This document shows positions 122-58,542 of a stretch of DNA of 64,000 nt, one piece after another. The notes beneath the pieces were generated by a model. That model was given only the letters and a program-made list of their open reading frames with translations, was not told the DNA's origin and did not search any database. Numbering within the stretch: the first letter of the stretch is position 1; every line of letters starts with the position of its first letter. The DNA is taken from positions 14,069 to 78,068 of the forward strand of contig CAWAUM010000009.1 of assembly GCA_963785235.1 (NCBI GenBank), given 5' to 3'. The position numbers and the translations under genes were made by a program. This DNA is from an uncultured delta proteobacterium. Its GTDB lineage: Bacteria; Desulfobacterota; Desulfomonilia; UBA1062.

Positions 122-143
122 TGAGCATAAGTTATCGAGAGTA

Positions 144-206
144 AACCCAGATTTTGCGTTTAGGACGTTTTAAAAACCTGATCCGTTCAAGTCCTGTCAT
201 CTTACA
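144..206 (-). repeat. Truncated copy of dispersed hairpin element (outer IR, short flank and start of one arm)
   Basis: AACCCAGATTTTGCGTTTAGG..TAAAAACCTGATCCGTTCAAGTCCTGTCATCTTACA matches the start of the copy at 35710; no second arm. Strand for this family is arbitrary: + means long flank on the left. Confidence 0.75.
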
Positions 207-439
207 ATATTTATCGAAAGCTTATTTTCTTGGTCCTGAAGAGTGGAATCTCTCCTTTGTGTAGAGTGAATTGTTCTTATAGTAATCGTTGCTTCATCCG
301 CGTCATCGGCGAGTATAGATTATATTCAGAACTATTCAATATCTTTAAAGGATTGATCATGGAATGTTATATTCAGTTTCTTTGGGCTTATAGAACCATT
401 GATTTTATTGCAAAATCATTAGTCTGAGAAAAGTGAAGA

Positions 440-8828: not shown

Positions 8829-9051
8829 AATCCGGGTTTTGCGCTTGAATGCACCCATAAATACTCAATGCACAACAGGCGCTCTTTAAGTATAAAACTC
8901 ATAGTGCCATGGAATTGTTTTTTAATTAGGTCCGTTCAAAACATCAATCTTGCAGCCTTGAAGGACCGATATAATTAGCGCTCCACAAAGGCTGCAAGAT
9001 TGATGTTTTGAAGGAAAAAGGTTTTACGGTTCTTAAATGCAAAATCCGGAT
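8829..9051 (+). repeat. Dispersed hairpin element, full copy; loop orientation A
   Basis: Outer IR AATCCGGGTTTTGCGCTTGAA / TTAAATGCAAAATCCGGAT; inner arms TTCAAAACATCAATCTTGCAGCCTT / AAGGCTGCAAGATTGATGTTTTGAA. Confidence 0.92.
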
Positions 9052-12675: not shown

Positions 12676-12823
12676 AACCCGGGTTTTGCAGTTAAGAGGA
12701 GTAAAAAAACTTGATCCGTTAAAAACCTCAATCTTGCAGCCTGGAAGGACCGGGAAATTAACATGCCGCAAAGGCTGCAAAATTGAGGTTTTTAACGGAC
12801 CTATTTAAAAACAGTTTCCATGG
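12676..12823 (-). repeat. Dispersed hairpin element, long flank truncated; loop orientation B
   Basis: Arms TCCGTTAAAAACCTCAATCTTGCAGCCT / AGGCTGCAAAATTGAGGTTTTTAACGGA (12715-12799). Confidence 0.9.
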
Positions 12824-21327: not shown

Positions 21328-21344
21328 GTCCGGGCCTCAGGTTA

Positions 21345-21566
21345 AATCCGGATCTTGCGTTTGGATGTATCCATCAATACTTTAGGCACTTAAGGTAACC
21401 TTGAGCATAGAATTCATTACAGCCATGGTAGTGCTTTTTTTAATAGGTCCGTTCAAAACCTTTATCTTGCAGCCTCGAAGGACTGATAAAATCTGCGTTC
21501 CTCAAAGGCTGCAAGATAAAGGCTTTGAACGGAAAAAGGTTTTTGCGCATCTCAAACGCAGAATCT
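21345..21566 (+). repeat. Dispersed hairpin element, full copy; loop A
   Basis: Arms TCCGTTCAAAACCTTTATCTTGCAGCCT / AGGCTGCAAGATAAAGGCTTTGAACGGA (21448-21533). Confidence 0.92.
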
Positions 21567-21652
21567 ACGGTTTATGCAATTATCAGATTGATTAAACGGT
21601 CCGGCTTCTATAATATTTTGCGGTTACTTTGATAGAGAGAAGGAGTTGCTCC

Positions 21653-23444
21653 ATGAGTACAGGCATCAAACACGAACGGCTTAACAAGTGGGTTTCCGAA
21701 GTGGCTGACATGTGCATGCCCGAATCGGTCATCTTGTGCGACGGAAGCAAAGACGAATACGACCGCCTCATGGCGGGCATGGTTGCAAGCGGCAGTGCAA
21801 TCCCGCTCAAGAAGCGGCCCAACAGCTTCCTTTTCCGCTCGGACCCGAGCGATGTCGCCAGGGTGGAAGACCGCACGTACATCAGCACGCCTGATAAAAA
21901 TGAAGCAGGCCCAACCAATAACTGGGTCGACCCGGCAGAACTGAAACAGACCATGAAGGCCCTTTACAAGGGATGCATGAAGGGCAGGACCATGTATGTG
22001 ATCCCGTTTTCCATGGGGCCCATCGGGTCGCCCATCAGCAAGATCGGCATGGAGATCACGGACAGCCCCTATGTGGTGTGCAACATGCACATCATGACAA
22101 GGGTGGGGACAAAGGTTATGGAGGCCCTGGGCACGGACGGTGAATTCATCCCCTGCGTCCATTCCGTGGGCGCACCGCTGGAGCCGGGGCAGAAAGACGT
22201 CCCGTGGCCCTGTGCACCCATCGAGAAGAAGTACATCAGCCATTTCCCGGATGAAAACCTCATCTGGTCATATGGTTCCGGATACGGCGGCAACGCGCTG
22301 CTTGGCAAGAAGTGCCTGGCCCTGCGCATAGCATCCGCCATGGCTAAGAGGGAAGGGTGGATGGCCGAGCATATGCTCATCTTGCGCCTGACAAACCCCG
22401 AGGGAACCCAGTTCCATATCGCAGCGGCCTTCCCGTCGGCCTGCGGCAAGACGAATCTGGCCATGCTCCAGCCCACCATTAAAGGCTGGAAGTGTGAGAC
22501 CATCGGCGACGACATCTCCTGGATGAAAATCGGCCCTGACGGAAGGCTCTATGCCATCAACCCCGAGGCAGGGTTCTTCGGCGTGGCGCCAGGGACCTCC
22601 TATAATTCAAACCCCATGGCCATGGATACCCTGCACGAAAACTGCATCTACTCCAACTGCGCACTCACCGACGATGGCGACATCTGGTGGGAGGGAATGG
22701 ACGGCGAGCCCCCTGCTCCACGCCATCGACTGGAAGGGCCGCGACTGGACGCCTGAGAGCAAGGAGGTGGCAGCCCATGCCAATGCCCGCTTCACCGCAC
22801 CTGCCGGACAATGTCCTGTCATCTGCGCCGACTGGGAGAAGCCCGAGGGCGTGCCCATCGACATCTTTGTCTTCGGCGGCAGGAGGGCAGGGGTAGTGCC
22901 GCTTGTGAATGAGGCATTCAATTGGGACCACGGTGTATTCCTGGGTGCGACCGCTTCGTCGGAGACAACGGCGGCCAATATCGGAGACATCGGGGCGCTC
23001 AGGCGCGATCCGTTTGCCATGAAGCCGTTCTGCGGCTACAACATGGGCGACTACTTCCAGCACTGGCTGAACATGGGCGACAAGCTGGGCAAGAATGCCC
23101 CGCGTATCTTCTATGTGAACTGGTTCCGCAAAGGCGTGGCAGGTAAGTTCCTCTGGCCGGGCTTCGGCGAGAACTCAAGGGTATTGAAGTGGATGTGCGA
23201 CCGCATCGACGGCAAGGCTTCTGCTCGTGAAACCTCCATCGGCCTGATTCCTGAGGAAGAAGACCTTGACCTGAAGGGCCTGAACATCCCGCAGGAAAAC
23301 CTGCACGAGCTCCTGAAGGTCGACGTGGATGTGTGGAAGGCCGAGATGCCGAGCCTGGAGGAGCACTTTGCCCAGTTCAAGGACAGGCTGCCCCAGCGCA
23401 TTATGCAGCAGCTCGATGCCCTGAAAGAACGGCTGAACAAGTAG
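21653..23444 (+). CDS. pckG: Phosphoenolpyruvate carboxykinase (GTP); apparent indel near 22715
   Basis: [50 protein letters not shown]. Confidence 0.95.
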
Positions 23445-23530
23445 AGAAAAAATACCATAGGCAGGGGCCGTGCGTGATTCAGCAGGTGGTAGTGCGGTCC
23501 CTGCTTTTTTTATCCAGTTATCTGACTTTT

Positions 23531-23748
23531 ATCCCAGATTTTATGCTTGAAGAGGTGTAAAAACCTTTTTCCGTTCAAAACCGTTATCTTGCAGCCTTTG
23601 AGGCATGCAGATTTTATGGGTCCTTCTCGGCTGCAAGATAACGGTTTTGAACGGACCTGTTTAACAAAAGCAAAACCATAGTCTATGGCTAAAGCCACCT
23701 GAAGTGCATTGAGTATGCATAGGTACATTCAATTTCAGAATCCGGATT
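23531..23748 (-). repeat. Dispersed hairpin element, full copy; loop A
   Basis: Perfect 27-bp arms TCCGTTCAAAACCGTTATCTTGCAGCC / GGCTGCAAGATAACGGTTTTGAACGGA (23570-23655). Confidence 0.92.
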
Positions 23749-23811
23749 TACGAGCCTTATTGACTCCATGTGCCATTGGATTGTATGACAATAAGACGAG
23801 AAAGGAGATAC

Positions 23812-24934
23812 GTGGATTTGCACCCTGCCATTACACCGTTTGATGAAGCAGTACGCTTCAGGAGGCAGCGCCTTGAAGAGGCGGCATCCAGCGGCAGGAA
23901 GGTCATCGGCTATTTCTGCACCTATACCCCTGTGGAGATCATCCATGCCGGCGGCTTTATCCCGGTGCGCATCTGGGGAGGGACCGGCCGGATTGAGAAG
24001 GCCTATTCGCTGGTGCCGAACTTTATCTGTCCGTACATGAGGCTTTCCCTGGAAGGGGCCTTGAACAACGAGTTCTCGTTTCTGTCCGGGATCGTGCAGG
24101 GGTACACCTGCGATGTGGCCTGTGGTGCCGTGAATATCTGGAAGGATAACTTCAGCCTGGAGCTCTGCCACAGCCTGCCTTTACCCTATAACGACAACCA
24201 GGATGCACGGGAATTCCTGCGGGCCGGCATTGAGGAGCTTGCCTGCAAGCTGACACGGATCGGGGGCAGCCTCACGGATGAATCGCTGAAAGACTCGCTT
24301 GAGCTTTATGAAGAGATAAGGACGATCCTTGCATGGTTATTTGAAATGACGTGCCCAGGGCAACCTGCCGCTTACGTGCCGGTGATGTCCTGAGCGTTGT
24401 GCAGGCGTACTTTGTCACCCCGCCTGAAGAGTACCTGGAAATGCTCAAGGCCTTGATGGTGTACCTGAAGGGCGCCCCGGTATCAATAACCCCAGGGAAT
24501 ACCGGTCCTCGTATCGGGCAGCGTCGTAGAGGATGCACAGGCCTTTACGATCATGGAGGGCCTTGGCTTCAAGGTCGTTGCCGATGATCTCTGTACGGGC
24601 CGGCGTGGCTTCATACCGATAGCCGGTCTCGGGGAGACGCCCATGGAGCGTCTTATAGACAGGATCATGAACAGGTTTCCCTGCCCCTCACGGTCGCACC
24701 CCAGGGAGAGGGTGCCGCTCCTCCTGGAGCTCATCAGGGCATCCCATGCAAAAGGGGTCATCTTCGTATTTCAGAAGTTCTGCACGCCGCACCTGGCGGA
24801 CCACCCCAAGGTTGCACAAGGGTTGAAAGATGCAGGTCATCCCCAGCATAGCAATCGAACTCGATGAGTCCGGGCTCATGGAGGCGCAGGTGGCAACAAG
24901 GCTGGAGACCTTCTGGGGCATGTTGAGGCAATAA
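23812..24934 (+). CDS. 2-hydroxyacyl-CoA dehydratase / benzoyl-CoA reductase family subunit (HGD-D), several apparent indels
   Basis: IGYFCTYTPVEIIHAGG, PNFICPY, YTCD, VADDLCTGRR, QKFCTPH, TRLETF. Confidence 0.82.
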
Positions 24935-24935
24935 G

Positions 24936-26186
24936 ATGGAGACGAACCGGAAGTCCACGAAACGCTTGAATACGGCCAGAGACCTCACAAAAGTGGTGGC
25001 GGAATACTACCTGGAGTGCCACCAGGCCAAGGCCTCGGGCAAGCCCGTCGGCTGGATGCCCCCCATGAACGGGGCCATAGAGGTATTCTATGCCATGGAC
25101 CTGCAGCCGGTCTTCCCGGAAAACTGGTCGCCCGTGTGCGCGGCCTTCGGGCTGACGCCCGAGCAACTTCGATATCTCCGAGCGCATGGGCTATTCGGGC
25201 GATCTGTGCGGTTATCTGCGCAATATCGTGGGCTATGTGCATGGTGACATGAACGGTCCGGCTGTCCCGCTGGGCGGCCTGCCCGAGCCGGACATGGTCA
25301 TGTCCTTCGGCGGCGGGTGCATTCCGGCCATGAAGATCTTCCAGATCATGGAAGGGCGCTTTCCCAGCGGCAAAGGTCTTCAGGGCGGATGTGCCCCAGG
25401 TGGCAGTGGAGGACATCCGCGACCACCATGTGGCCTATGCGGTGAGCGAGATACACCGGCTCATAGATTTCCTTGAAAGGACAACCCGACAGAAGGCTCG
25501 ATATGGCAAGGCTCGCCGACGTGGTAGAGCTCTCGGACAGGGCATGCCTGCTCTGGGACGAGATCATGTCGTTCCGCCGGTTCATACCCACCCCCATCTC
25601 GGCAGCCGAGATCGGCATCATGTTCGTCATGGTCACCAGGCAGGGTACGCAGATCGCCGTGGACTTCCTCACCCGGGTGCGTGACGAGGTCAAACAAAGG
25701 GCAGCCTCGGGCATCGGAGTCATCGAGAACGAGAAGATCAGGCTCTTCTGGGACAACATCCCTCTGTGGTACAACATGGGTCTGTTCAACTACTTCGAAA
25801 AGATGGGCGGCGTGATGGTTGCCGAGACCTATTCTGCAGCCTGGTCGCTCCGGCTTGACACGAAAGATCCCATCGAGGCCCTTGCACGGAAGAGCCTCAT
25901 GTCGTATTCGCTTGTCTCGTGCCTGTCCATTGATCGCCGCAAGGAGATGGTGCTCAAGGCCTGCCGTGACTACAAAATCGACGGGGCCGTGTTCCACCAG
26001 AACAAGTCGTGTGCGCCCATCACCCTTGGCCAGGCGGACATCCGCAAGGCCTTATCCGATGAACTCGGCATCCCTTCCATCACCATTGATGCCGACCATA
26101 TGGACAGCCGCAACTTCTCTTTTGCCCAGTTTCAGACCAGGGCTGACGCGTTCATGGAGATGCTGCTCCAGAAAAAGCAGGGTTGA
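24936..26186 (+). CDS. Second HGD-D family subunit (HgdA/BcrB-like), several apparent indels
   Basis: VFPENW, GYSGDLCGY, GGLPEPD, RLFWDNIPLW, HQNKSC, DADHMDSR..QTRADAF. Confidence 0.82.
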
Positions 26187-26206
26187 AAAAGCGGGTTCTT
26201 TTTATA

Positions 26207-26395
26207 AATCCGGATTGTGCGTTTAAGGAGTGTAAAAACTTGGTCCGTTCAAAACCTTTATCTTGCAGCTTTTGAGGAACGTTAGTTTTATCAGCCCTTC
26301 AAGGCTGCAAGATAAAGGTTTTGAACGGATCTATGAAAAAAAGCACTACCATGGTCGTAATGAGTTCTATTCTTAAGTTCACCTGAATCGCACGC
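26207..26395 (-). repeat. Dispersed hairpin element; loop A
   Basis: Arms TCCGTTCAAAACCTTTATCTTGCAGC / GCTGCAAGATAAAGGTTTTGAACGGA (26244-26329). Confidence 0.92.
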
Positions 26396-26400
26396 AATGC

Positions 26401-26775
26401 CTATGGATTGTTAATCTTGAATTTGACCGAGGCCTTTGTATCACCTTCAATAATCAGTATGGCTCCATACGATCCCTTGGGAAGGTCATTGAACCACCAC
26501 CATTTGGTCCAATTCTCAGGAACATAATCCTTGTATGTCTTCACGACAGTTCCTGTAGAAAGGTCACTTATCCGAACCGTTACATTATGCCCGCCACAGC
26601 CTGTAACAACCACTGCGGGTATTTCGCCTGCAGCGTATTGATCTACCCGCATAGTATAGTTACCGGCCTTAACATCAACCTGACGGGACATGTGTATGTC
26701 CTGGGGAACAGCAGCACAGCCGAACATGAATACTACTGATATGAATACGAGAACGGATGATAATAGTTTTATCAT
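26401..26775 (-). CDS. Hypothetical lipoprotein
   Basis: MIKLLSSVLVFISVVFMFGC lipobox-like signal; AAGGAG RBS. Confidence 0.65.
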   Translation of the reverse strand: MIKLLSSVLVFISVVFMFGCAAVPQDIHMSRQVDVKAGNYTMRVDQYAAGEIPAVVVTGCGGHNVTVRISDLSTGTVVKTYKDYVPENWTKWWWFNDLPKGSYGAILIIEGDTKASVKFKINNP

Positions 26776-32436: not shown

Positions 32437-32452
32437 AAGCAACCTGGTAGAA

Positions 32453-32668
32453 ACTTGGCGTTTAAGAAGCGTAAAAACCTTTTCCGTTCAAAACCTTTAT
32501 CTTGCAGCCCATGAGGACAGCAGATTTTATCAGTCCTTCAGGGCTGCAAGATAAAGGTTTTGAACGGACCTATTAAAAAAAAGCAATACCATGGTCGTAA
32601 TGAGTTCTCTACTTAAGGCCACCTGAAGCGCATAGAGCATTATAGGTACATTCAATTGCAAAATCCGG
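32453..32668 (-). repeat. Dispersed hairpin element, full copy; loop A
   Basis: Perfect 28-bp arms TCCGTTCAAAACCTTTATCTTGCAGCCC / GGGCTGCAAGATAAAGGTTTTGAACGGA (32483-32568). Confidence 0.92.
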
Positions 32669-32729
32669 CATACATGGTATCATCCATATCCTTGTCTCTA
32701 ATGCTTAAGCCATGAGGGAATGACAGGTT

Positions 32730-35691: not shown

Positions 35692-35709
35692 TCCATGTGG
35701 CTTTGGATT

Positions 35710-35933
35710 AACCCGGGTTTTGCGTTTGAAGACGCGTAAAAACCTGATCCGTTCAAATCAGTCATCTTGCAGCCTTTGCGGAAGGCTCATTATCTCGGTT
35801 CTTTAAGGCTGCAAGATGACTGATTTGAACGGACCTATTTTTAAAAACAATTCCATGGTCACTAATAGTGTTATGCTTACAACCACCAGAGATAAATGGG
35901 GCAATTATGGGTACATCTAAACGCAAAATCCGG
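35710..35933 (-). repeat. Dispersed hairpin element, full copy; loop A
   Basis: Perfect 29-bp arms TCCGTTCAAATCAGTCATCTTGCAGCCTT / AAGGCTGCAAGATGACTGATTTGAACGGA (35748-35833); outer IR CCGGGTTTTGCGTTT / AAACGCAAAATCCGG. Confidence 0.93.
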
Positions 35934-35946
35934 CATCAATAACATT

Positions 35947-37339: not shown

Positions 37340-37402
37340 AAAAACCTTACCGTTCAAAACATGCATCTCGGTGAAGCCGAGATGCATGTTTTGAACGGTC
37401 CA
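37340..37402. repeat. Mini-variant of the hairpin element (inner arm and loop replaced)
   Basis: Perfect 23-bp arms ACCGTTCAAAACATGCATCTCGG-TGAAG-CCGAGATGCATGTTTTGAACGGT (37349-37399), preceded by AAAAACCTT as in the short flank. Confidence 0.85.
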
Positions 37403-44867: not shown

Positions 44868-44907
44868 ATCCGGGTGAGGGAAGCAATAATCCCTCATCCG
44901 GATTTTC
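44868..44907 (+). terminator. Probable intrinsic terminator of gap
   Basis: ATCCGGGTGAGGGA-loop-TCCCTCATCCGGAT followed by TTT. Confidence 0.55.
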
Positions 44908-44920
44908 ATTACATGCCCTG

Positions 44921-45042
44921 GAGCCAATTGCGAAAGCCCAAGATTGTCATACCTGCGAAAGCTTCGAATCCAGTCTTTTCAGAAACTTCTGGACCCCCGC
45001 TTTCGCGGGGGTGACACCTTTTTTTAGTTTTGCAATTGCCTC
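44921..45042. repeat. REP-like doublet inside an outer inverted repeat
   Basis: GTCATACCTGCGAAAGC..AATCCAG...CTGGACCCCCGCTTTCGCGGGGGTGAC flanked by GAGCCAATTGCGAAA / TTTTGCAATTGCCTC. Confidence 0.65.
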
Positions 45043-45067
45043 CCTGTCTTTAAAAACCCATTTTGTC

Positions 45068-45132: not shown

Positions 45133-48333
<3,201 letters not shown>

Positions 48334-48346
48334 ACTGAATAAGGAC

Positions 48347-48485
48347 TTGTTTTTAAAATAGGTCCGTTCAAAACCTTAAAGATCGCAGCCTTTGTGGAAT
48401 GCTGATTGTAGCGGTCCTTCAAGGCTGCGATCTTTAAGGTTTTGAACGGATCAGGTTTTTACACTTTTTGAACGCGAAATCCGGG
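48347..48485 (+). repeat. Dispersed hairpin element, long flank truncated; loop B
   Basis: Perfect 30-bp divergent arms TCCGTTCAAAACCTTAAAGATCGCAGCCTT / AAGGCTGCGATCTTTAAGGTTTTGAACGGA (48363-48450). Confidence 0.92.
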
Positions 48486-48780
48486 GTACTATAAAAAGCA
48501 TTTGCACGTTGTTTTTTTAATTACCTGAGAGTATAAATGCCCTGTCTCCTGTGCAGAGTAACGGATTGACGGGGGCTAAGAGCTGAAAAAATCCGATGCA
48601 ATGTGCCTGCATAATTGAATGTTCTGATATAGGGCATGAGCATTTATAATTTTTTTGTATTATGCACAGGAGACCATCCTTTCATACCTCACCTCCTTTT
48701 TTAATAGTATTGAATCGAAAACAAATAGCACATACAATGGATGCATTGACCTTAAAAAGGGCATTGAAATGTCTTGGAAT

Positions 48781-50092
48781 ATGAGTCTTTTGAAAAACCT
48801 TGCATCATTGCGGCTTACTGTGGGGCTTCTGCTCTGGCTCGCCTTTCTGTGTATCCTCGGCACCATCATACCCCAGCAGCCCTTTCCCTCTGCAGCCGGT
48901 GTGCCCTTTGCCATGCATGTCATCAGCTTGTTGAGCCTGAGAGATGTATTCCATTCACTGTGGTTCCTCATCCCTGCGGCTGCGCTCTGTTTGAACGCAC
49001 TTGCCTGCATGTACCTGTGGAGGAAGGCCTTTTGGCGGGTCAACTTCCATGCCCAAGGCCCTACTGTACGAGGTAACCATTCCCGGTGAAGGCGCTCAGG
49101 ATCGGATCAGTGCGGATCTCACCAGCTTCATGAAAGGCACGCACAGGACTTGCCACAGCCAGGAGGGCCACACAGAGATTATCATGGGTGAAAAGGGGAT
49201 GCCCCGTAAGTTTGCGCCGTTTATGGTGCACGGCAGCATCCTTCTCATCCTGCTTGGCGCAGGCCTGGGGTTTCTTGGTTACAAGGGGAGCCTTGAAGTC
49301 CCTGTGGGCCAGGCTTCGGACACGGTCACGCTGAGTAACGGAACAATCATGCACCTGCCTTTTCAGGTCCGTTGTGATGACTTCAAGATGGAGCTCTACG
49401 ACAACGGCATGCCCAAGGAATACCGCTCAGAGATATCGTTCCTTCAAGGAGACAGGGTTGTTCGGCACGCATCCGTCCTGGTCAATCACCCGGTGAGCTT
49501 CAGCCGTGTCCTGTTCTCGCAGAGCGGATACAACGCCAGTCCGGTTGCTGCAATACAGGTGAGCACCCCTGCAGGCAATGACCAGATAGATGCAGCCGAG
49601 GGTTCGGTCATTGAGTTGCATGACACCGGGTACAAGGCCCATGTGGTTAAGGTTGTGGAGGACATCATGCATATGGGCCCCGGGGTCCAGCTCGTCATCG
49701 AGACACCCAAGGGCGAGCAGGAGGTATGGGTCTTCAAGCAGATGGAGAAGATCCTGGCCATGCATCCCGGGATCATTGAAAAGATGCCCCAGTTCAATCC
49801 ATCACTGGTTAAGCCTTATACCTTTTCCCTCAAGGACGTCACCCACAGCTATACGACGATACTCGGCATCAATTACGACCCGGGTATCATCTTTGTGGGG
49901 CTCGGGTCCGTGCTCTTCATGGCAGGCATCTGCATTGCCTTCATGGTTGTCCATGAGAGGGTCTGGATCTCCCTGGAAAAGCTGCCCCAGGGGCTGACAA
50001 TCAAGGTCGCACAGCGCAGCAATGGAAAACCGACTGCCGTCAGCCCGCGCTTTCTGGAACACCTCAACAGCCTTACCGGGGTGAAATCATGA
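48781..50092 (+). CDS. resB: Cytochrome c biogenesis protein ResB/CcsB (apparent indel near 49030)
   Basis: LASLRLTV..ILGTIIPQ, DVFHSLWF, VHGSI, VNHP, YDPG. Confidence 0.88.
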
Positions 50093-50889
50093 ACACCACG
50101 ATCTTTGCAGCTGTAACCTTTGTCTATCTCGCTTCATTCGTCATTTTCCTCATTGCAGAGGTTGCTCTCCGTGCAGCATGGGGCCGTGCAGGAAAGATTC
50201 TTGCCATGGCAGGATTTGTCTTCCACACCTGTGGGATTGCCATCAGGTGGGTCGAGTCTCACCAGGCAGGCATGGGCCATGCCCCGCTGTCCAACTTCTA
50301 CGAGTCCCTGGTCTTCTTCTCCTGGTCTGTCTGTCTGCTCTACCTCATCTATGCCTGGAAGGAGACAAAAGGCATCCTCGGAGTCTTCGTGATGCCTGCG
50401 GCATTCCTGCTCATGGCATATGCGTCCTTCTCCCCCACCGTAGATGCACGCATCCAGCCCTTGATCCCTGCTCTCAAGAGCAACTGGCTCATCATCCATG
50501 TGGTCACCTGTTTTTTAGGGTATGCGGCCTTTTTCATGGCCTCTTTGTTCGGGGTTATTTCTCTTGTGAAAAAGGGCTCGGAGCAAAGACAAGCCTCCCT
50601 GGCCGACATGCTCGAAAAGAGCCTCAGGACAGGGTTCATCCTGTTCACCTTCGGCATCGTCACCGGATCGGTATGGGCATATTTCGCCTGGGGGAGGTAC
50701 TGGGGCTGGGACCCCAAGGAGACCTGGGCACTCATCACCTGGCTCATCTATGCAGCCGCCATCCATGTGCGCGTCCGTGACGGATCTGTGAGCAGGCGTG
50801 TAGCCGTCATCACCATCATCGGGCTTGCGAGCGTCCTGTTCACCTACTTCGGGGTTAACTACCTGCCCGGGCTTCACAGTTATCAATAA
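50089..50889 (+). CDS. ccsA: Cytochrome c biogenesis protein CcsA/ResC
   Basis: PLSNFYES, LKSNWLIIHV, WGRYWGWDPKETW, GLHSY. Confidence 0.93.
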   Translation: MNTTIFAAVTFVYLASFVIFLIAEVALRAAWGRAGKILAMAGFVFHTCGIAIRWVESHQAGMGHAPLSNFYESLVFFSWSVCLLYLIYAWKETKGILGVFVMPAAFLLMAYASFSPTVDARIQPLIPALKSNWLIIHVVTCFLGYAAFFMASLFGVISLVKKGSEQRQASLADMLEKSLRTGFILFTFGIVTGSVWAYFAWGRYWGWDPKETWALITWLIYAAAIHVRVRDGSVSRRVAVITIIGLASVLFTYFGVNYLPGLHSYQ

Positions 50890-50904
50890 TATATCTGCGT
50901 GGGG

Positions 50905-51050
50905 GCCACGGAAGTGCTTCTTTAAATTAGGTCCGTTCAAAACATCAATCTTGCGGCCTTTGTGGAATGTCAATTTTATCGGTCCTTTAAGGCCGCAAGA
51001 TTGATGTTTTGAACGGAAAAGGTTTCTACGATTCATAAACACAAGATCTG
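50905..51050 (+). repeat. Dispersed hairpin element; loop B
   Basis: Perfect 29-bp arms TCCGTTCAAAACATCAATCTTGCGGCCTT / AAGGCCGCAAGATTGATGTTTTGAACGGA (50932-51017). Confidence 0.92.
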
Positions 51051-51174
51051 AAATTGAAGATCCAGCATGTAAACAGGCAGGAGTAATCACAGGCAGGACT
51101 AATCACTTGATTCTTTCGACGTAAGACAGTACATGGTACCTGAAATTATCCTCATGAGACAGGAGAATGACACT

Positions 51175-51748
51175 ATGGATATAGTGAGCCGTTTTTCAAA
51201 GATAACCCTCAAGGCCGCAGCGCTACTGGCAGTTTCCTTGATGATTTTTGCCGCCCCGTTAGTCAGCCAGGGCAGAGACAGCCAAGGAGATTGACCTGAG
51301 CGTGGATGTGTCCCTGGAGAGTTTTGCAAAAGAGGTCAAGGGCGCTAAGGAATTTCTCCAGGCATCCAAGGGGGTCCTCGTATTCCCCAGGGTTTACAAG
51401 GCAGGCTTCTGGTTGGGGGGCGAGTATGGCGAAGGTGCGCTCAGGATCGAGGGGAAGACCGCTGATTACTATAGCCTTGCTGCCGGCTCCTATGGATTCC
51501 AGTTCGGCGCCCAGGTCAAGACCGTGATCCTGGTGTTCCTCCAGAATGAAGCCCTGGAAAAGTTCCGCAAGGACGAGGGGTGGAAGGCCGGTGTTGACGG
51601 CTCCGTGGCGGTAGCGGATGAGGGTGTGGGCAAGTCCATTGACTCGGCAACCTTCAAGGAGCCTATCATCGCCTTTATCATAGACCAGAAGGGGCTGATG
51701 CTGAACCTTACCCTCGAAGGGGCGAAATTTACCAAGATCAAGAAATGA
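51175..51748 (+). CDS. Ysc84/SYLF lipid-binding domain protein (signal peptide in shifted frame)
   Basis: GVLVFP..KAGF..GGEYGEG, SYGFQFGAQ, KGLM..LEGAKF. Confidence 0.85.
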
Positions 51749-51824
51749 TGCACTACGTCTTTCATCCAGGCAAAAAATCAGCTCGTAATGCTGGTTTGCC
51801 TGAGGGAGACGGCCAGGGGATAGT

Positions 51825-53690
51825 GTGAAGGTCGCACTCATCCAGCTTGTGCTGCAATCCCATGACTATGTCTATTCCCTTGAGAACATGCCCCTGGCCG
51901 CAGGGTACCTGGCTTCTTATGCATCGGCTAGGAATGTACCTGCAGACATCATCATCTGCCCTGCCGACATTTCAAACCTTGGCGGGGATGCGGCAATCCT
52001 TGGCTGGGTCGAAGAGATCCGGCCCGATATGGTGGGGTTCAGCTGTTACCTGTGGAACGTCCAGCGCACACTGCACCTTTGCAGCAAGATCAGGCAAAGC
52101 CTTCAGGATTGTATCATCGTGCTGGGCGGGCCCGAGGTAACCCGGGATAATGATTTTCTCCTGAGTCACGAGGGCTTCCACTTCGGCGTGGTGGGAGAGG
52201 GCGAAGAGACCTTTGCAGATCTGCTCAATGCCGCAGCCCATGGCATGGAAGGTGTCCTCGATATCCCGGGTCTCATGGTGAGACAGGGTTCCAAGGCCGT
52301 GTTCACCAAACCGAGAAGCCTCATGACCAACCTGGACAGCGTGCCTTCCCCCTACCTGAGCGGTATGCTGACCCCGGGTCTGAACAGGGGCATGGTCATT
52401 GAGACCGTAAGGGGCTGTCCCATGCGGTGCGCCTACTGCTACTATCACAAGAGCTCCCCTGTGGTGCGTACATTCAGGGCAGGCCGGATAGGCGAAGAGC
52501 TCAGGTGGGCCACAGAGAAAGGCATCCAGGAGGCGACTGTCATTGATCCCTGTTTTGCAAGGAGGCCGGGCCTGGAGGTGCTCCTTGCAGAAATGGCAGT
52601 TTCCAGGGAAGAGAAGATGCGTTTCAGCTGTGAACTGATCGCCGAGGATATCACCCCTGTTCTTGTGGACGCCCTTGTTGCAGCAGGGCTTCACCACGTG
52701 GAGATAGGGCTCCAGAGCACCAATGAAAAGGCGCTGCGCAACATCAACAGGCCCTTTGAGCGGGAGGCCTTTATCCAGGGCGATAAGGCTGCTCCGTTCA
52801 GCAGGGGTAAGGGTTATGACGGATATCATGGTGGGTTTGCCGGGCGATACCTTGGACGATGTGAAGCGTTCCATGGATTTCGTGCTTGCGCACAACCTCT
52901 GCGATGACCTGAGCCTCTATCCCCTGAGCATCCTGCCCGGCACGAAGCTCAGGCAAAAGGCCCTGCAGTTCGGCATCGAGTATGAGCACGAGCCGCCTTA
53001 CCTTGTCACAAAGACGTTTGACATGGATCGTGATGACATCCGTGAGGCCTTCATCTATGCCGAAGATGCAACAGGGAGAGACCTGTTCCCTGTTGAGCTT
53101 CCGCGCCTGGGCGGCAGCAAAGGGGCACAAAACCGGGAAGATCGTCCATAGGATCATTATGGATGATAATGGCAAAAGCCTTGATGTTTCACCCGGCGAG
53201 ATAGGACAGGCCCTTTGCATCGAGGTGCCTGGCAATGCCCTCCTGAAAAGCCCGGATTCTCTCAGGACAAAGGTGCAGGCACTCCTTGAGGAGAACCCCT
53301 ATACGCTGGTGAGCTGGATCGTGCCTGAAGAGGCATTCAGTATGGATAAGACAACAGAATTCATAACCTCTGTGGGCATGGGCAAGGCACATCCCATAGA
53401 CAGTGAATACATGGCCACCTATACCCCCATGAGGTCATGCCAGCTCTTTCTCAAGGGCAGTGCAGGAAAGGGTGGATACATCTATACACAGATACCGCTT
53501 GTTCCGGACCCATCAAGACCCATCTGGGCTGCCCTGCCTGAAGATGCCGGGCCCGAAGAGGAGCAGGCGCCATAGCCGGCGTATGGAAGGGCTCCTGGGT
53601 TTCAAGCCCGATATCCGCTATCATGACCTGGAGGCTGAACGGCACGATGCCCTTGATGACCTGCTTACGGAAAGGAGCGTATCAATCTGA
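51825..53690 (+). CDS. B12-binding-domain radical SAM protein (several apparent indels)
   Basis: PLAAGYLAS, VGFSCYLWN, GGPE, GEGE, ETVRGCPMRCAYC, IGLQS, GLPGDT. Confidence 0.85.
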
Positions 53691-53735
53691 GGAAGGGATT
53701 GTTTTATCAGAAATTGCGACCGATGATTACCTTTC

Positions 53736-53955
53736 AGTCCGGATGTTGTATTTAAGATGCGTAAAAAACTGATCCGTTCAAAACATCAATCTTGCGGCCT
53801 TTGTGGAATGTTAATTTTATCGGTCCTTTTAGGCCGCAAGATTGATGTTTTGAACGGACCTGGTTTAAAAACAATACCGCGGTCACTATGAGTATGAGGC
53901 TTAAAGCCGCCAGAAGTGCATAGTATGTTCTTGGATTTAATTACATAATCCGGGT
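53736..53955 (-). repeat. Dispersed hairpin element, full copy; loop A
   Basis: Hairpin 53773-53858 with the short flank on the left. Confidence 0.92.
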
Positions 53956-55218
53956 TCAGTAATACTCAAGCAGCCCCGAACGAAGGGCCTCTGCCTGAAT
54001 GATCTTCTGCCATTTCTTAACATGTGATCCGGACAGGTCCAGTGCAAGGGCCTTTTTATAGAGTGCATCCATATCTTCAGCAGTGTGATCTTCGATGAAT
54101 GCATCCTTGAAGAGCTCGATCTCCTTGCCTGATAGCTCCAGATCCATAAAGGCCGTGGCGCGTTCCACAGCGATCTTCTTGCCGGATGCAAGCCTGATCT
54201 CTTTGAAAGGGTTGTGGTAGGTGATGCTTGGGAGCATTGTGGCAATGGCGTAAGACAGCTTCATTGTCTGTGCTATGCCCTCAGGTTTCCCATCCATACG
54301 GATTATGCGGATCATGCCTGCCCTTGTTATGTCCTCGAACGGTTTGGCCATGAGCGGTGCCCACCGTGCCCGTGAGGACCTGGTCTGGAACCGGTGGCGG
54401 TAGATGAGCGAGCAGTAGTTGACGCCCAGGTTTATGTCTTTGTCCACGGCATACCTCAGCAGCTTCAGTGCGGTAAGTTCGGATTCGAGGATGCCGATCT
54501 GGGGCCCGTGGAGAAAGGTGTAGCCGCGCCCGGCCAGTTGCTTCCAATTGTGTTTTGTGCAGCGGATCTGGTGGAGGTTCAGGAAGGATATCCCGTAATC
54601 GGCCATCTCCCAGATCTTTGCCTTCATGATCTCCATGTCTTCGGGTATGGCCGGTATCTCCACGGTGACGTTCTTTATGATGCGTGAGGCCATCTTTGCC
54701 TTGGACAGGTCGTATCCGGTGGCTGTAATGTTGAAGCGGATCTCATTCAGCCCGGCATCAGCGAGCATGCTGAGCTTTTCTTCCGTGGCAAGGGTGCCGT
54801 TGGTGTAGAGCCACAGGTAGATACCATCTCCGAGGCGTTTCTTGATATGTCTGACGAACGAGATGGTCTTGTCAAAGGTGAGCAGGGGCTCGCCGCCGCT
54901 GATACTCGCCCCGGTGAAGTTGAATTCTTCGAGGTAGTCTGCATAGTCTTCAGGCGATGAGAAGGTCAGCGTGCTTGTGCCCGGCTCGTCGGCAATGTCC
55001 TGCCTTGCAGGGCAGAAGAAGCACTTAGCGTTGCACAGGTTGTTGATGAAGAGGCACGACCATGACCCTTCACCGCAGAGACGGCAACCGGGTGAGAGTT
55101 TTTTATGAAAGGGCTTGGTGTTGTTGAATAGAAAAAGGCCTTTCTTTCTGATATCTTCCAGCAGGTTTTCTCTTATTGCTTCTATTTGTGCAGCCTCTTG
55201 TTCCTTGAGCCACTTCAT
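53956..55218 (-). CDS. Radical SAM protein, uncharacterised
   Basis: SPGCRLC, CNAKCFFC, SGGEPL, LYTNG, DAGLNEIRF. Confidence 0.88.
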   Translation of the reverse strand: MKWLKEQEAAQIEAIRENLLEDIRKKGLFLFNNTKPFHKKLSPGCRLCGEGSWSCLFINNLCNAKCFFCPARQDIADEPGTSTLTFSSPEDYADYLEEFNFTGASISGGEPLLTFDKTISFVRHIKKRLGDGIYLWLYTNGTLATEEKLSMLADAGLNEIRFNITATGYDLSKAKMASRIIKNVTVEIPAIPEDMEIMKAKIWEMADYGISFLNLHQIRCTKHNWKQLAGRGYTFLHGPQIGILESELTALKLLRYAVDKDINLGVNYCSLIYRHRFQTRSSRARWAPLMAKPFEDITRAGMIRIIRMDGKPEGIAQTMKLSYAIATMLPSITYHNPFKEIRLASGKKIAVERATAFMDLELSGKEIELFKDAFIEDHTAEDMDALYKKALALDLSGSHVKKWQKIIQAEALRSGLLEYY

Positions 55219-55401
55219 CGCAGCACATCAGAGCCGTACTCATCCAGATTGTTTTGGACAATGGCAGCATGATCAAGTTCGGGTATCAGCATGGGTATTT
55301 CCTGCAGTGTCTTCGTAACGCATCTCTAAGAGGACAGATGGGGCTATAGGTGAAATAACACACCAGGTCAACACGTGAGTTGGTTAAGCTATTTTCTGGG
55401 T

Positions 55402-55457
55402 AATTCAGATTGTGCGTTTAAGATAAGTAAAAAAACGGATCCGTTCAAAACTCCATC
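55402..55457 (-). repeat. Truncated copy of hairpin element (outer IR, short flank and start of arm)
   Basis: AATTCAGATTGTGCGTTTAAGATAAGTAAAAAAACGGATCCGTTCAAAAC. Confidence 0.75.
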
Positions 55458-55545
55458 ACTTGATAATAATCCTGGAACTGCCGAAAAACATCTGATAGAT
55501 CATGCCCAACAAAAGGGATGCACCATAAGGAGAGATATTTTCACC

Positions 55546-55887
55546 ATGCCCATAGTCCTCAAAACGACCCTGCTGCTTATCCTCTCAAACCTCTTCATGA
55601 CCTTTGCCTGGTACGGCCACCTCAGGAACCTGAATACGCGCCAGTGGTACATTGCCGCATTTGCAAGCTGGGGCATCGCCCTGTTCGAGTATATGCTGCA
55701 AGTGCCTGCAAACCGCATCGGGTTCCAGCAGCTCAATCTCCCCCAGCTCAAGATCCTTCAGGAGGTCATAACGCTGTCGGTCTTTGTGCCGTTTTCGATT
55801 TTTTACATGCAACAGCCTTTAAGGCTCAATTATCTCTGGGCAGGGATTTGTCTGATGGGTGCCGTGTACTTCATTTTTCGCACCTGA
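55546..55887 (+). CDS. DMT family small membrane protein (DUF486-like)
   Basis: SNLFMTFAWYGHL, SWGIALFEY..QVPANRIG, QLKILQEVITL. Confidence 0.9.
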   Translation: MPIVLKTTLLLILSNLFMTFAWYGHLRNLNTRQWYIAAFASWGIALFEYMLQVPANRIGFQQLNLPQLKILQEVITLSVFVPFSIFYMQQPLRLNYLWAGICLMGAVYFIFRT

Positions 55888-55917
55888 TAAGTCTCCCTTA
55901 GGATCTGCCAGGGATTC

Positions 55918-56139
55918 AAACCAGATTTTGTGTTTGATTGTATCCATAATTGATTCATAAATCTCTGGTGACCTTAAGCATAGCACGCATAGTGATCATG
56001 GAATTGTTTTTAAAATAGGTCCGTTCAAAACATCAATCTTGCGGCCTTTGTGAAATGTTAATTTTATCGGTCCTTTTAGGCCGCAAGATTGATGTTTTGA
56101 ACGGATCAGTTTTTTACTCATCTTGAACGCACAATCTGA
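55918..56139 (+). repeat. Dispersed hairpin element, full copy; loop B
   Basis: Hairpin 56020-56105 with the long flank on the left. Confidence 0.92.
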
Positions 56140-56198
56140 GATGAAAAAAATCAGGCCCGAAATCCTCGCAATCCGAACAGCTGTCAAAAGACCAAATT

Positions 56199-57539
56199 TT
56201 AAAGAGGGATGTCCTTGAGCAGTCTGTTAGCAGGCGAGCCTTCAACGGTCCGGCTGAATTCCTTAAGTATCCCTTGTAACCCTTCAGGTTCATCTTGTGG
56301 GGGCATGGTGATGCAGGCAACGCCGTATCCCTCCAGCGCCTCAATGACTGAAGTCACGGTAATGGTGCCCGGGTCCCTGGCAGGCATGTAGAGGGTTTTC
56401 TCATCGCCCGGCGAAGCCGCCTCAACGATGATACCGGTTTCGCACAGCTCATGAAGTATCTGTTTTGTGAGGACTACCGGCAGGCCAAGCTGATCGGATA
56501 TGTCGGAAGAGCCGGGCGCGGGTGATCCCGTTGCGAATCCTGCCACAACACGGTGCGCGACTGTAAGGCTGATGAGCTTCTTTTGAGAGGGATTTATCCT
56601 GTGCATGTCCAGCTCGATCCCGCATGCATGTGCATTTTGATATGCGTAAGAAAGCTCGGCCCCGAACAGCACGATGAACCAGCTGAGCTGAAGCCATACA
56701 AGGAATAGGGGCAGGGCGGCAAAACTGCCGTAAATGGCATTGTAATGGGCCACCCCGACCTGAAAGTAGATGTAGATCCTCTGCACCACGACAAAGATAA
56801 TCCCCGCCACCAGGCCGGCCGTAAGACATGAAGCAGTATTTACCTTGGTATTGGGTATGAAGGCATACATGAAGGCAAGGAGTATCCATGTGAGGCAGTA
56901 GGGGATCAGTTTTATCAGGGTTGTTATGAAGAAGGAGAAGATCCCCACCCCGAGGCTGCCGGTGATGGAGTTCATCTGTGCATTGACCATGACCGTAGAG
57001 CTGCCGGAGATGATGATGAGGATAGGTGCGACAAGCATGATTGCAAGGTAGTCGCTGACCTTCCGGCTGAACGACCTGTGCCTGGTCACACCCCAGATGC
57101 TGTTAAAGGAAAGCTCGATGTTTTCGAGCACCTTGATTACCGACCACAGGAGCACGATGATGCCGACTCCGGCAAGCAGACCGCCTTTTGTGCTGTCCAG
57201 GAGACGGCGGGAAAACTCAATGACATACACCACCACCTCCTGGTGATCGGCCATATCTTCCATGAGGCGCTGCTCCAGGAGTTTCTGAAAACCGAATCCC
57301 TTGGCAATGGCAAAGGCTACGGCAGCAATAGGGACGATGGACATGAGGGTGAAGAAGGTGAGAGCGGATGACCGCAAGGCGCAATTGTCAGCGTCATATT
57401 TTCTCAAGGTGATGGAAAGGATCCTGAAGGAGGCTATGAAAAACCTTTTTATCCTCGGTAAGTCCTTAAGGGAGATTTCCCATATGCCCTGCTTCAGGAA
57501 AAATCTGATGGCTTCAAGATTATCTACTTTGTCCTTCAT
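56199..57539 (-). CDS. YihY/BrkB family membrane protein with C-terminal wHTH-like domain
   Basis: SALTFFTLMSIVP, IELSFNSIW, YNAIYGSFAALP..GAE. Confidence 0.92.
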   Translation of the reverse strand: MKDKVDNLEAIRFFLKQGIWEISLKDLPRIKRFFIASFRILSITLRKYDADNCALRSSALTFFTLMSIVPIAAVAFAIAKGFGFQKLLEQRLMEDMADHQEVVVYVIEFSRRLLDSTKGGLLAGVGIIVLLWSVIKVLENIELSFNSIWGVTRHRSFSRKVSDYLAIMLVAPILIIISGSSTVMVNAQMNSITGSLGVGIFSFFITTLIKLIPYCLTWILLAFMYAFIPNTKVNTASCLTAGLVAGIIFVVVQRIYIYFQVGVAHYNAIYGSFAALPLFLVWLQLSWFIVLFGAELSYAYQNAHACGIELDMHRINPSQKKLISLTVAHRVVAGFATGSPAPGSSDISDQLGLPVVLTKQILHELCETGIIVEAASPGDEKTLYMPARDPGTITVTSVIEALEGYGVACITMPPQDEPEGLQGILKEFSRTVEGSPANRLLKDIPL

Positions 57540-57677
57540 GGATAATCCCCTCCTCGTCACATTCAAATGCACCCCTGAGTGCTTGATATTTTAAATAACC
57601 GCAAAGGATGTAGTGCAAAAATAGAATCATCCTTGAACAAATTCTACCACGATCTCAAATCCAGGGGTAGTTTCATC

Positions 57678-57824
57678 TAATGGTAGTGTTTTTAAATCAG
57701 GTCCGTTCAAAACCTCAATCTTGCAGCCTTTGTGGAACGCTAACTTTATCGGTCCGTCAAGGCTGCAAGATTGAGGTTTTGAACGGATGAGTTTTTTTAC
57801 ATATCTTGAACGCAAAATCCGGGT
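57678..57824 (+). repeat. Dispersed hairpin element, long flank truncated; loop B
   Basis: Perfect 29-bp arms TCCGTTCAAAACCTCAATCTTGCAGCCTT / AAGGCTGCAAGATTGAGGTTTTGAACGGA (57702-57787). Confidence 0.92.
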
Positions 57825-57910
57825 ACAACAAGGATGATGGAACATAAAAAGGGGGAAGGCTGGTTGATAAGACCGGTCCTTCCCCCTGCTTATAGTTTAT
57901 ACACGTTTGT

Positions 57911-58384
57911 TCAGGCGTGTGTTCTTTCCTCTATGCACACCTCAATGGTGAAGCTGCCGTTATCCGTTTCGAATGGGATGGCAACGATAGGTTGCTTGGT
58001 AATGTGGGAGATTGCATGGTTCTTGCCGGTGATCACTGTGGGGATAGCACCTTTGAGTGTCCTCCCCATGGCTTCGAGTTTCTGCCGTGCCTGGCCGGAT
58101 ACGATGTTCAGGATCTCGCCCACAGCGTCTTTGACCTCATCGTTGATCTCCAGGATCTTTTCGCCGAACATATTGCTGACAATTGCAAGGATGCTTTCCT
58201 CGGAAAAGCTCACAGATATAGTGCCCCTGGCTTCGCCGGAAAGGCCCACGATTCCTGATACATCTCCTTTTGCGACATCATCTTTCTTCAGATAAGGGGT
58301 GCCGACCGTTGCCTTAGTAAAGGCCATTGATGTCAATACATGCAGTGTTGCCTCTATGAACGGGTTGATGAGTCTTACATCCAT
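57911..58384 (-). CDS. cheX: Chemotaxis phosphatase CheX
   Basis: INPFI, DVSGIVG, DAVGEILNIVSG, PTVITG. Confidence 0.92.
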   Translation of the reverse strand: MDVRLINPFIEATLHVLTSMAFTKATVGTPYLKKDDVAKGDVSGIVGLSGEARGTISVSFSEESILAIVSNMFGEKILEINDEVKDAVGEILNIVSGQARQKLEAMGRTLKGAIPTVITGKNHAISHITKQPIVAIPFETDNGSFTIEVCIEERTHA

Positions 58385-58428
58385 ACATACCTCTCGAGAT
58401 TATTGCTTCACGCTATGCACTGTTAATG

Positions 58429-58456
58429 CTATCGGCAATGGCTTTGAAAAAATGTA
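58429..58456 (-). promoter_or_regulatory. Possible sigma28 (FliA) promoter for cheX
   Basis: Minus strand TACATTTT-N12-GCCGATAG about 45 bp upstream of cheX; spacing one longer than consensus. Confidence 0.35.
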
Positions 58457-58542
58457 GTGTAAATTTGAGTCTGGGGGAGATTTTTTTCGTAACAGACTGA
58501 TCCGGTTAAACATGCCGGATAGTCACCGTGATTTCAGAATGT

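Follow-up and report, generated by a model that had tools for sequence, protein, structure and literature searches.

Recurrent spacer inversion in the hairpins of a dispersed intergenic repeat of an uncultured delta proteobacterium

The 64,000-nt stretch of an uncultured delta proteobacterium analyzed here (GenBank assembly GCA_963785235.1, contig CAWAUM010000009.1, positions 14,069 to 78,068 of the forward strand; “the window”) harbors a family of short repeats, each built around a hairpin whose long inverted arms enclose a spacer of about 32 nt. The spacer, or loop, has been inverted recurrently, locus by locus, within this family. Its orientation differs at three of the six loci at which a copy of the window has an occupied ortholog in a related metagenome-assembled genome (MAG), and orientation is scattered on trees of the family. 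[quoted passage not shown] Its spacers probably flip through template switching mediated by the arms, or through short-tract conversion, as a passive by-product of DNA synthesis through the palindrome rather than as a programmed switch.

The inversion can be seen within the window itself. On the + strand the hairpins of copies 53.8k and 56.0k (copies are named by position; 53773-53858 and 56020-56105) are identical at 85 of 86 nt, and their asymmetric flanks are swapped. The 40 nt left of the 53.8k core agree at 30/40 positions with the 40 nt right of the 56.0k core once the latter are reverse-complemented, and the 60 nt right of the 53.8k core agree at 43/60 with the reverse-complemented 60 nt left of the 56.0k core. 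A word from the flank accordingly lies on the + strand at 53753-53779 and on the - strand at 56099-56125, while a loop word is read from the + strand at 50959, 53800 and 56047. A stem word has 11 matches in the window and none in 100 shuffles. By self-BLAST and inspection the window contains 12 full and three partial copies of the repeat. The full copies were classed with nhmmer, using one profile each for the left flank, the right flank and the loop. Seven are type A (8.9k, 21.4k, 23.6k, 26.2k, 32.5k, 35.7k and 53.8k) and five are type B, in which the loop is reverse-complemented relative to the flanks (12.7k, 48.4k, 50.9k, 56.0k and 57.7k). An initial annotation of the window had already proposed the swapped flanks of 53.8k and 56.0k and had sorted the copies into exactly these two sets, and both proposals are borne out. 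Absent from it were the terminal inverted repeats (TIRs) of about 20 bp on long copies, the three partial copies and the short right flank of four of the five B copies. When only the + strand is considered, irrespective of flank orientation, the loops of the three leftmost copies (8.9k, 12.7k and 21.4k) read “-” and the other nine read “+”.

Relatives of the element were sought by scanning 185,579 species-representative genomes with palindromic words of the stem base, a pattern blind to the orientation of both loop and flanks. The scan returned 40 loci, 23 of which are contigs of a single MAG, CAYMDG01 (“uncultured Bacteriovoracaceae bacterium”), with the same element; this MAG is 90-96% identical to the window across syntenic blocks of 0.5-4 kb. 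The remaining 17 loci (Marinobacter, Binatia and others) were dropped as unrelated palindromes or as coding DNA merely containing the 11-nt words. The Marinobacter loci (L004, L010, L014, L019, L024 and L030) hold an unrelated palindromic repeat whose stem includes the same 11-nt word and whose outer flanks are themselves inverted repeats. After removal of L018, which overlaps or duplicates L017, the MAG has 24 distinct family hairpins, and the 22 that could be classed comprise 14 A and 8 B. The other two (L006 and L027) combine family arms and flanks with loops that have diverged beyond the reach of the loop profile; on visual inspection both resemble type A, and they are omitted from the counts. 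Window and MAG together give 21 A and 13 B among 34 classed copies.

Six window copies can be compared with an occupied ortholog. Three pairs are unflipped, with loop identities as written of 32/32 (8.9k/L022), 29/32 (23.6k/L005) and 29/32 (53.8k/L008). At 50.9k/L009 and 56.0k/L015, flanks and arms align and the spacer is reverse-complemented; its identity is 16/32 and 14/32, respectively, as written, and 30/32 in both cases once orientation is corrected. Apart from three substitutions in one L015 arm, the differences at these two loci are confined to the ~32-nt spacer. Three of the four arm comparisons give 26/26 and the fourth gives 23/26, and the inversion breakpoints of both clean flips coincide with the inner ends of the arms. 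The third flipped pair, 32.5k/L028, is of another kind. Its loop is inverted (12/32 as written, 19/32 after correction), and two compensated stem pairs, the loop and ~10-15 nt of inner flank all differ between outer flanks that are alike, which we read as replacement by a cassette from another copy. In one arm of the 56.0k ortholog (L015:295-305), three C-to-T changes and a 1-nt deletion cluster at the junction of arm and loop; the cluster could have been left by a switch that was imprecise, or by deamination while the DNA was single-stranded. The central proposal of the initial annotation, a loop inverted relative to its flanks, is supported and strengthened, and inversion has taken place more than once, as the genomes compared here and the trees described next both show.

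A single ancestral inversion in a master copy, followed by separate amplification of A and B with no locus ever flipping, was the scenario that the initial annotation had set against its own proposal. The stem haplotypes lend it something, as CCTCAATCTTGCAGCC is mostly found in B copies and CATCAATCTTGC[A/G]GCC mostly in A copies. The scenario is nevertheless rejected by the three of six orthologous loci that differ in orientation on conserved flanks, and by the number of orientation changes on trees of the family. On a tree of the hairpins, with all loops set to one orientation, the A/B label changes 9 times (shuffled labels: mean 10.65, with 166/1000 shuffles at 9 or fewer). On a tree of the flanks (33 rows; L026, whose left flank runs off its contig, was left out) it changes 10 times (shuffled labels: mean 10.43, with 507/1000 shuffles at 10 or fewer). 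Nine to ten changes are no fewer than expected from shuffled labels. Both trees are short and poorly supported, and the orthologous pairs are the stronger evidence. We give two ancient subfamilies next to no credence.

The same evidence bears on the possibility that loop orientation was mis-resolved during assembly. De Bruijn graphs can go wrong at inverted repeats if k is smaller than the arm, and the many split genes of the window suggest an error-prone assembly. Against this, both orientations are present in two independent assemblies, the flanks are syntenic over 1-2 kb on both sides, and indel errors do not invert 32 nt. By reasoning, a read or k-mer of at least 29 nt fixes the orientation of a loop between arms of 26-27 bp, and no modern read or final k-mer is as short as such an arm. 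An assembly artefact is therefore extremely unlikely as the source of the flips.

Among 884 mirrored arm positions, 861 are Watson-Crick pairs, 21 of the 34 copies have 26 perfect pairs, and 97.9% of the cells in an alignment of the 34 hairpins are paired. Perfection is kept despite change: 12 of the 26 pairs have changed on both sides (66 cells) versus five one-sided cells, a result reached by 0/500 shuffles, and no slid register of the arm alignment approaches the observed covariation. The 23 arm mismatches comprise five G.T on one strand, ten G.T on the other and eight of other types. A strand bias of G.U pairs, as the mark of a functional RNA strand, is not clear from these numbers (5 versus 10 in 34 copies, clustered in two of them), so nothing points to either RNA strand as the object of selection. 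Judged by this pattern, the arms appear to behave as a DNA palindrome. Matches to known RNA families were not found in the window with Rfam 15 at the gathering threshold (0 matches), nor did a tRNA/tmRNA scan detect any such gene. A relaxed Rfam search of one copy returned miRNA-precursor models only, at 22-30 bits versus gathering thresholds of 63-144, and these were set aside as generic similarity among long hairpins.

Conservation is concentrated in the hairpin. Mean identity between paralogs is 85% for the arms, 72% for the loops when corrected for orientation (60% uncorrected) and 56-57% for either flank, and hardly any variation is seen in the outer 11 bp or at the top of the stem. The trio 50.9k, 53.8k and 56.0k illustrates this most clearly, with arms alike at 26/26 and loops at 29-31/32 positions on flanks alike at only 25-30 of 40-42. 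Its orthologs in the MAG are likewise homogeneous, bar the three substitutions in one L015 arm. On sequence grounds the hairpin would seem to be either strongly constrained or homogenised between copies, and the cassette swap at 32.5k/L028 indicates that transfer between copies does happen.

A spacer of 32 bp between perfect arms of 26-27 bp is a textbook substrate for template switching at palindromes, and small hairpin-linked inversions in non-coding plastid DNA are a classical parallel. We infer that an unprogrammed process of this kind is at work here, in which the long perfect inverted arms on either side would make the spacer turn recurrently. While DNA is being replicated, or synthesised in repair, a nascent strand copying one arm may leave its template within that arm and anneal to the complementary arm, which may lie on the other strand or in another copy of the repeat. 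The spacer would then be copied from that strand, and synthesis would return to the original template at the second arm. One such event would invert the spacer exactly at the arm boundaries and at the same time make the two arms perfect complements. Were the template another copy, the whole hairpin cassette would be transplanted, in either orientation, and both the swap at 32.5k/L028 and the homogenised trio may be explained by switching of this sort. Template switching at quasi-palindromes, with perfection of the arms, was among the mechanisms listed by the initial annotation and fits the arm-bounded flips and the covarying perfect arms. According to the accessible parts of the respective papers, template switching homogenises the arms and inverts the spacers of inverted repeats in yeast (PMC8604942), is described as a source of inverted loops in the hairpins of rRNAs and miRNAs, and of compensatory changes spanning several bases, bacterial rRNA included (PMC8794818), and has been proposed as a correcting force on inverted repeats of proteobacteria (PMC5941160).

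Flips might also arise mainly by ectopic conversion, i.e. by copying the cassette from another copy, with which the palindromic arms permit alignment either way round. Such conversion is better seen as a version of the favoured template-switch explanation than as a true alternative, and as the principal route it is conceivable yet somewhat doubtful. It would readily account for 32.5k/L028, where stem pairs, loop (19/32 corrected) and ~10-15 nt of inner flank differ between similar outer flanks, and for the near-identical hairpins on diverged flanks that the trio shows in both genomes. All three loops of the trio moreover point the same way on the + strand of the window, whatever the orientation of their flanks. 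At 50.9k/L009 and 56.0k/L015, however, the cassette is otherwise unchanged (30/32), and inversion in place explains this in a single step; donors would have identical sequence, so that the clean flips cannot decide.

Another rival is a programmed one, in which a recombinase or nuclease encoded elsewhere recognises the hairpin and flips the cores often, each locus being a phase-variable micro-inverton. A and B copies are indeed both frequent in each genome (7:5 and 14:8), orientation differs at half of the orthologous loci, and a near-invariant outer 11 bp and stem top, together with a loop more conserved than the flanks, is what a recognition site would look like. The initial annotation had suggested a search for an invertase or HUH nuclease beside a copy; neither 73 ORFs of the window nor 48 ORFs beside the copies of the MAG yielded a recombinase, invertase, transposase or HUH domain (Pfam, E <= 1e-3 or 1e-5). 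To our knowledge, a spacer of 32 bp is too short for duplex synapsis by known invertases. The accessible text of an inverton preprint holds no passage on a minimum inverton size. That the copies lie inside contigs of a short-read MAG assembly, and do not always break them, weighs weakly against near 50:50 mixtures of orientations. By inspection, loop and flank orientation have no pattern relative to the direction of neighboring genes in the window, where gene calls are uncertain because several genes are split. Taken together, these points make programmed micro-invertons unlikely.

A regulatory role of loop orientation had also been considered in the initial annotation, since the loop carries a TAAAAT/TATAAT-like hexamer and its orientation might matter for transcription. 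A promoter and terminator scan of positions 48000-58500 made no call in the five cores of this region, no sigma-70-like promoter being called in the five loops scanned, and its totals were no higher than those of shuffles. The one promoter-like site nearby (48330-48359) lies in a flank. The promoter-flip idea was therefore dropped, and the result likewise counts against micro-invertons.

A related and bolder possibility is that the cassette is an active recombination module, i.e. that dispersed micro-invertons of ~30 nt are both flipped and traded faster than by spontaneous template switching, through a hairpin-recognising enzyme encoded elsewhere. It is compatible with the data because the loop is conserved, the stem base invariant and 50% of the orthologs flipped, and we regard it as improbable all the same. 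If true, phase variation would extend to dozens of intergenic sites, or these sites would keep a record of replication and strand history.

Several observations weigh against the passive, template-switch reading of this MITE-like repeat. Three flipped loci out of six fit a fast programmed switch equally well, and the two clean flips cannot separate flipping in situ from conversion by another copy. The loop is better conserved than the flanks (72% versus 56-57%), hinting at selection or recognition, neither of which the passive account needs. Nine of the 12 window loops point the same way on the + strand and could be directional; this bias is not significant (two-sided binomial ~0.15, our own estimate) and is not seen in the MAG orthologs. 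The search for enzymes covered 64 kb and ~80 kb of the two genomes. Finally, neither a target-site duplication nor a parent transposase was found, and mobility rests on one presence/absence difference. A rough bound on the rate can be drawn. With three of six loci flipped, the exact 95% interval is ~0.12-0.88, and a two-state model would translate this into at least ~0.14 flips per locus over ~0.06-0.10 substitutions per site. Scaled to one substitution per site, the rough lower bound would be about 1.4-2 flips per locus. Such a rate would be within reach of a mutational hotspot and would not require a switch enzyme. On balance, passive flipping of a MITE-like repeat through its arms remains the likely explanation.

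The repeat as a whole is ~150-230 bp long and intergenic, with asymmetric flanks around the hairpin. In the flank-canonical orientation the left flank measures ~40 nt and begins with a CCGGATTTTGCGTTTAAGA-like word. The hairpin (83-86 nt) begins with CCGTTC and consists of 26-27 bp arms and the ~32-nt spacer, itself a weak palindrome with a 5x5 internal loop, ~6 bp including one mismatch and an apical loop of 10 nt. The right flank varies from 25 to 105 nt. In long copies it reaches ~105 nt and ends in the reverse complement of the CCGGATTTTGCGTTTAAGA-like word, so that the two ends form the ~20 bp TIR and pair with each other in folds; the TIR word has 9 matches versus 0.03 expected. Short forms mostly do without the right TIR. 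The four window copies with a right flank of just 25-45 nt are all type B; in the related MAG, short copies occur among both A and B types, and form is therefore not linked to loop type. The copies of the window are as follows (strand refers to the flanks; A and B to the loop relative to them).

8829..9051 (outer ends approximate), - strand: copy 8.9k, long form, type A; hairpin 8932-9015; ortholog L022 in the same orientation.
12677..12823, + strand: copy 12.7k, short right flank, type B; hairpin 12716-12798.
21341..21571, - strand: copy 21.4k, long form, type A; hairpin 21449-21532; right-end TIR 21343-21362.
23529..23749, + strand: copy 23.6k, long form, type A; hairpin 23571-23654; ortholog L005 in the same orientation.
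26205..26431 (right end uncertain, without clear TIR), + strand: copy 26.2k, type A; hairpin 26245-26328.
32447..32669, + strand: copy 32.5k, long form, type A; hairpin 32484-32567; its ortholog L028 is of type B and has another hairpin cassette.
35708..35935, + strand: copy 35.7k, long form, type A; hairpin 35749-35832; right TIR 35915-35933.
48335..48488, - strand: copy 48.4k, short right flank, type B; hairpin 48364-48449 with 27 bp arms.
50895..51057, - strand: copy 50.9k, short right flank, type B; hairpin 50933-51016; its ortholog L009 is of type A, with conserved arms and flanks and an inverted loop.
53733..53956, + strand: copy 53.8k, long form, type A; hairpin 53774-53857; left TIR 53739-53757; ortholog L008 in the same orientation.
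55918..56145, - strand: copy 56.0k, long form, type B; hairpin 56021-56104; its ortholog L015 is of type A, with conserved arms and flanks and an inverted loop.
57675..57825, - strand: copy 57.7k, short right flank, type B; hairpin 57703-57786; the orthologous region in L015 is a run of N.
143..237, + strand: degenerate partial copy with left flank and diverged core.
37350..37398, strand unassigned: short perfect hairpin with family stem base, flank-like edges and a 6-nt loop.
55402..55452, + strand: truncated copy with left flank and 12 nt from the start of the arm, lying in inverted orientation to the left flank of copy 56.0k.

Of the three partial copies, the hairpin at 37350-37398 is probably a deletion derivative of the core. 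The truncated copy at 55402-55452 and the left flank of 56.0k (56094-56145), ~640 bp apart, bracket the ORF at 55518-55901 and form an inverted repeat of ~46 nt, which could give rise to a larger inversion.

This anatomy also bears on whether the hairpin might be a mobile cassette in its own right, able to enter a specific site of a backbone repeat either way round. Such a cassette would account for a hairpin more conserved than its backbone and for the exchange at one locus (32.5k/L028). An empty backbone was not encountered, however, since 0/36 left-flank matches directly abut a right flank and the gap within a copy (85-113 nt) equals the length of the hairpin; the remaining left-flank matches, which belong to short or truncated copies or are right-end TIR matches, had no adjacent right flank matched. 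Nor does the related MAG have a family hairpin without family flanks, and the sole flank-poor hairpin (37350-37398) keeps flank-like edges. We consider an independently inserting hairpin very unlikely.

By ORF calls and Pfam, all 12 full copies of the window are intergenic, and each is faced by the 3' end of at least one neighboring gene. Split genes, seen as adjacent or overlapping ORFs, lie at 21629-23444, 23770-26186, 14275-16216 and 48655-50092 (PEPCK, 2-hydroxyglutaryl-CoA dehydratase D-component, PFL-like and ResB). In the related MAG PEPCK is one intact ORF of 616 aa (L005:25-1872), and the splits in the window suggest indel errors of a long-read assembly, or pseudogenes.

From its TIRs and one extra copy in L005 we infer that the element is, or was, mobile. 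The extra copy, a short form at L005:2195-2350, stands right after the right TIR of the first copy and is absent from the window at ~23750; its junctions are compatible with a TA duplication (a single case). Target-site duplications at the ends of the long copies follow no consistent pattern. The putative empty site of 57.7k in the MAG is a run of N, at which ends and target duplication are not definable. An autonomous insertion sequence (IS) with the same TIRs was not found in the window or the MAG loci by the domain search of the 73 and 48 ORFs. A further copy in the MAG lies downstream of GAPDH (L037:1940-2120). There the window (44890-45060) has unique DNA with a GC-rich hairpin and a T run, resembling a terminator; it has just the TIR-like word CCGGATTTTCATTAC in common with L037 and is not repeated elsewhere.

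Elements of the Correia or ERIC type are examples of bacterial MITEs. Like these, the present element is small, non-coding, dispersed and intergenic, with TIRs of ~20 bp, a long as well as a short form, one presence/absence difference and strong structure in the transcript or single-stranded DNA. It differs in having no demonstrated target-site duplication or parent IS, and in that its best-conserved feature is the central perfect palindrome and not the TIRs. With repetitive extragenic palindromes (REPs) and the bacterial interspersed mosaic elements (BIMEs) they form, it shares intergenic palindromic repeats, often at gene 3' ends, in both orientations. REPs, as characterised in the accessible part of PMC3733652, are 20-40 bp long with a conserved GTAG or CGTC tetranucleotide at one end. 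The hairpin of the window, in contrast, has 83-86 nt, starts with CCGTTC and sits between asymmetric flanks of ~40 and ~100 nt, and no RAYT-like/HUH gene was seen among the 73 and 48 ORFs. Identity with REPs was therefore rejected on size, end tag and RAYT gene.

Invertons resemble the element in that a segment bounded by inverted repeats occurs in both orientations at one locus, here between two related genomes. They differ from it in the length of the spacer (~32 bp in the window), in the invertase, none of which was found nearby, and in the promoter or coding consequence, none of which was detected. The flip/flop hairpins of parvoviruses and poxviruses likewise come in two forms that are reverse complements of the unpaired part of the hairpin. 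These are termini of linear replicons resolved by a nickase, whereas the copies described here are internal chromosomal sites among housekeeping genes that are syntenic in two genomes, with no Rep/HUH gene in the ORFs searched. A flip/flop replicon was rejected on these grounds, and the idea of a hairpin-replicating element, raised in the initial annotation, finds no support. A blastn search of plasmid and phage collections with a full copy gave no match.

The closest likeness is to hairpin inversions by template switching, which share with the present family arm-bounded inversion, recurrence and homoplasy, arms kept complementary by two-sided changes, and no need for a dedicated enzyme. In the rRNA loop inversions covered by the accessible part of PMC8794818, spacers mostly measure 4 nt and reach 7-8 nt, compared with ~32 nt between 26-27 bp arms here. 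The window element further differs in its dozens of dispersed paralogs, in being near saturation (21 A : 13 B; three of six flipped) and in the exchange of cassettes between copies. A literature search brought up the general mechanism but, for dispersed repeats of bacteria, nothing describing loops that flip throughout a family. To see a mutational mechanism that is itself known come close to saturation in a dispersed bacterial repeat, and in a family that is new, would be unusual.

Should the flipping prove fast or driven by an enzyme, the element would represent a new class of very small invertible elements. On the favoured template-switch reading its significance lies elsewhere. Perfect “compensatory” stems without clear G.U strand bias, explicable at the DNA level, call for caution in covariation-based RNA discovery, and inverton finders would call such sites phase-variable. 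As a rule, template-switch inversion of spacers is deduced from single, rare events. In this family, dozens of near-identical palindromes with 26 bp arms, a marked 32-nt spacer and asymmetric flanks mean that each copy reports its own flip history, and the repeat would thus offer, ready-made in nature, many loci at which template switching driven by palindromes, and short-tract conversion, could be measured in bacteria.

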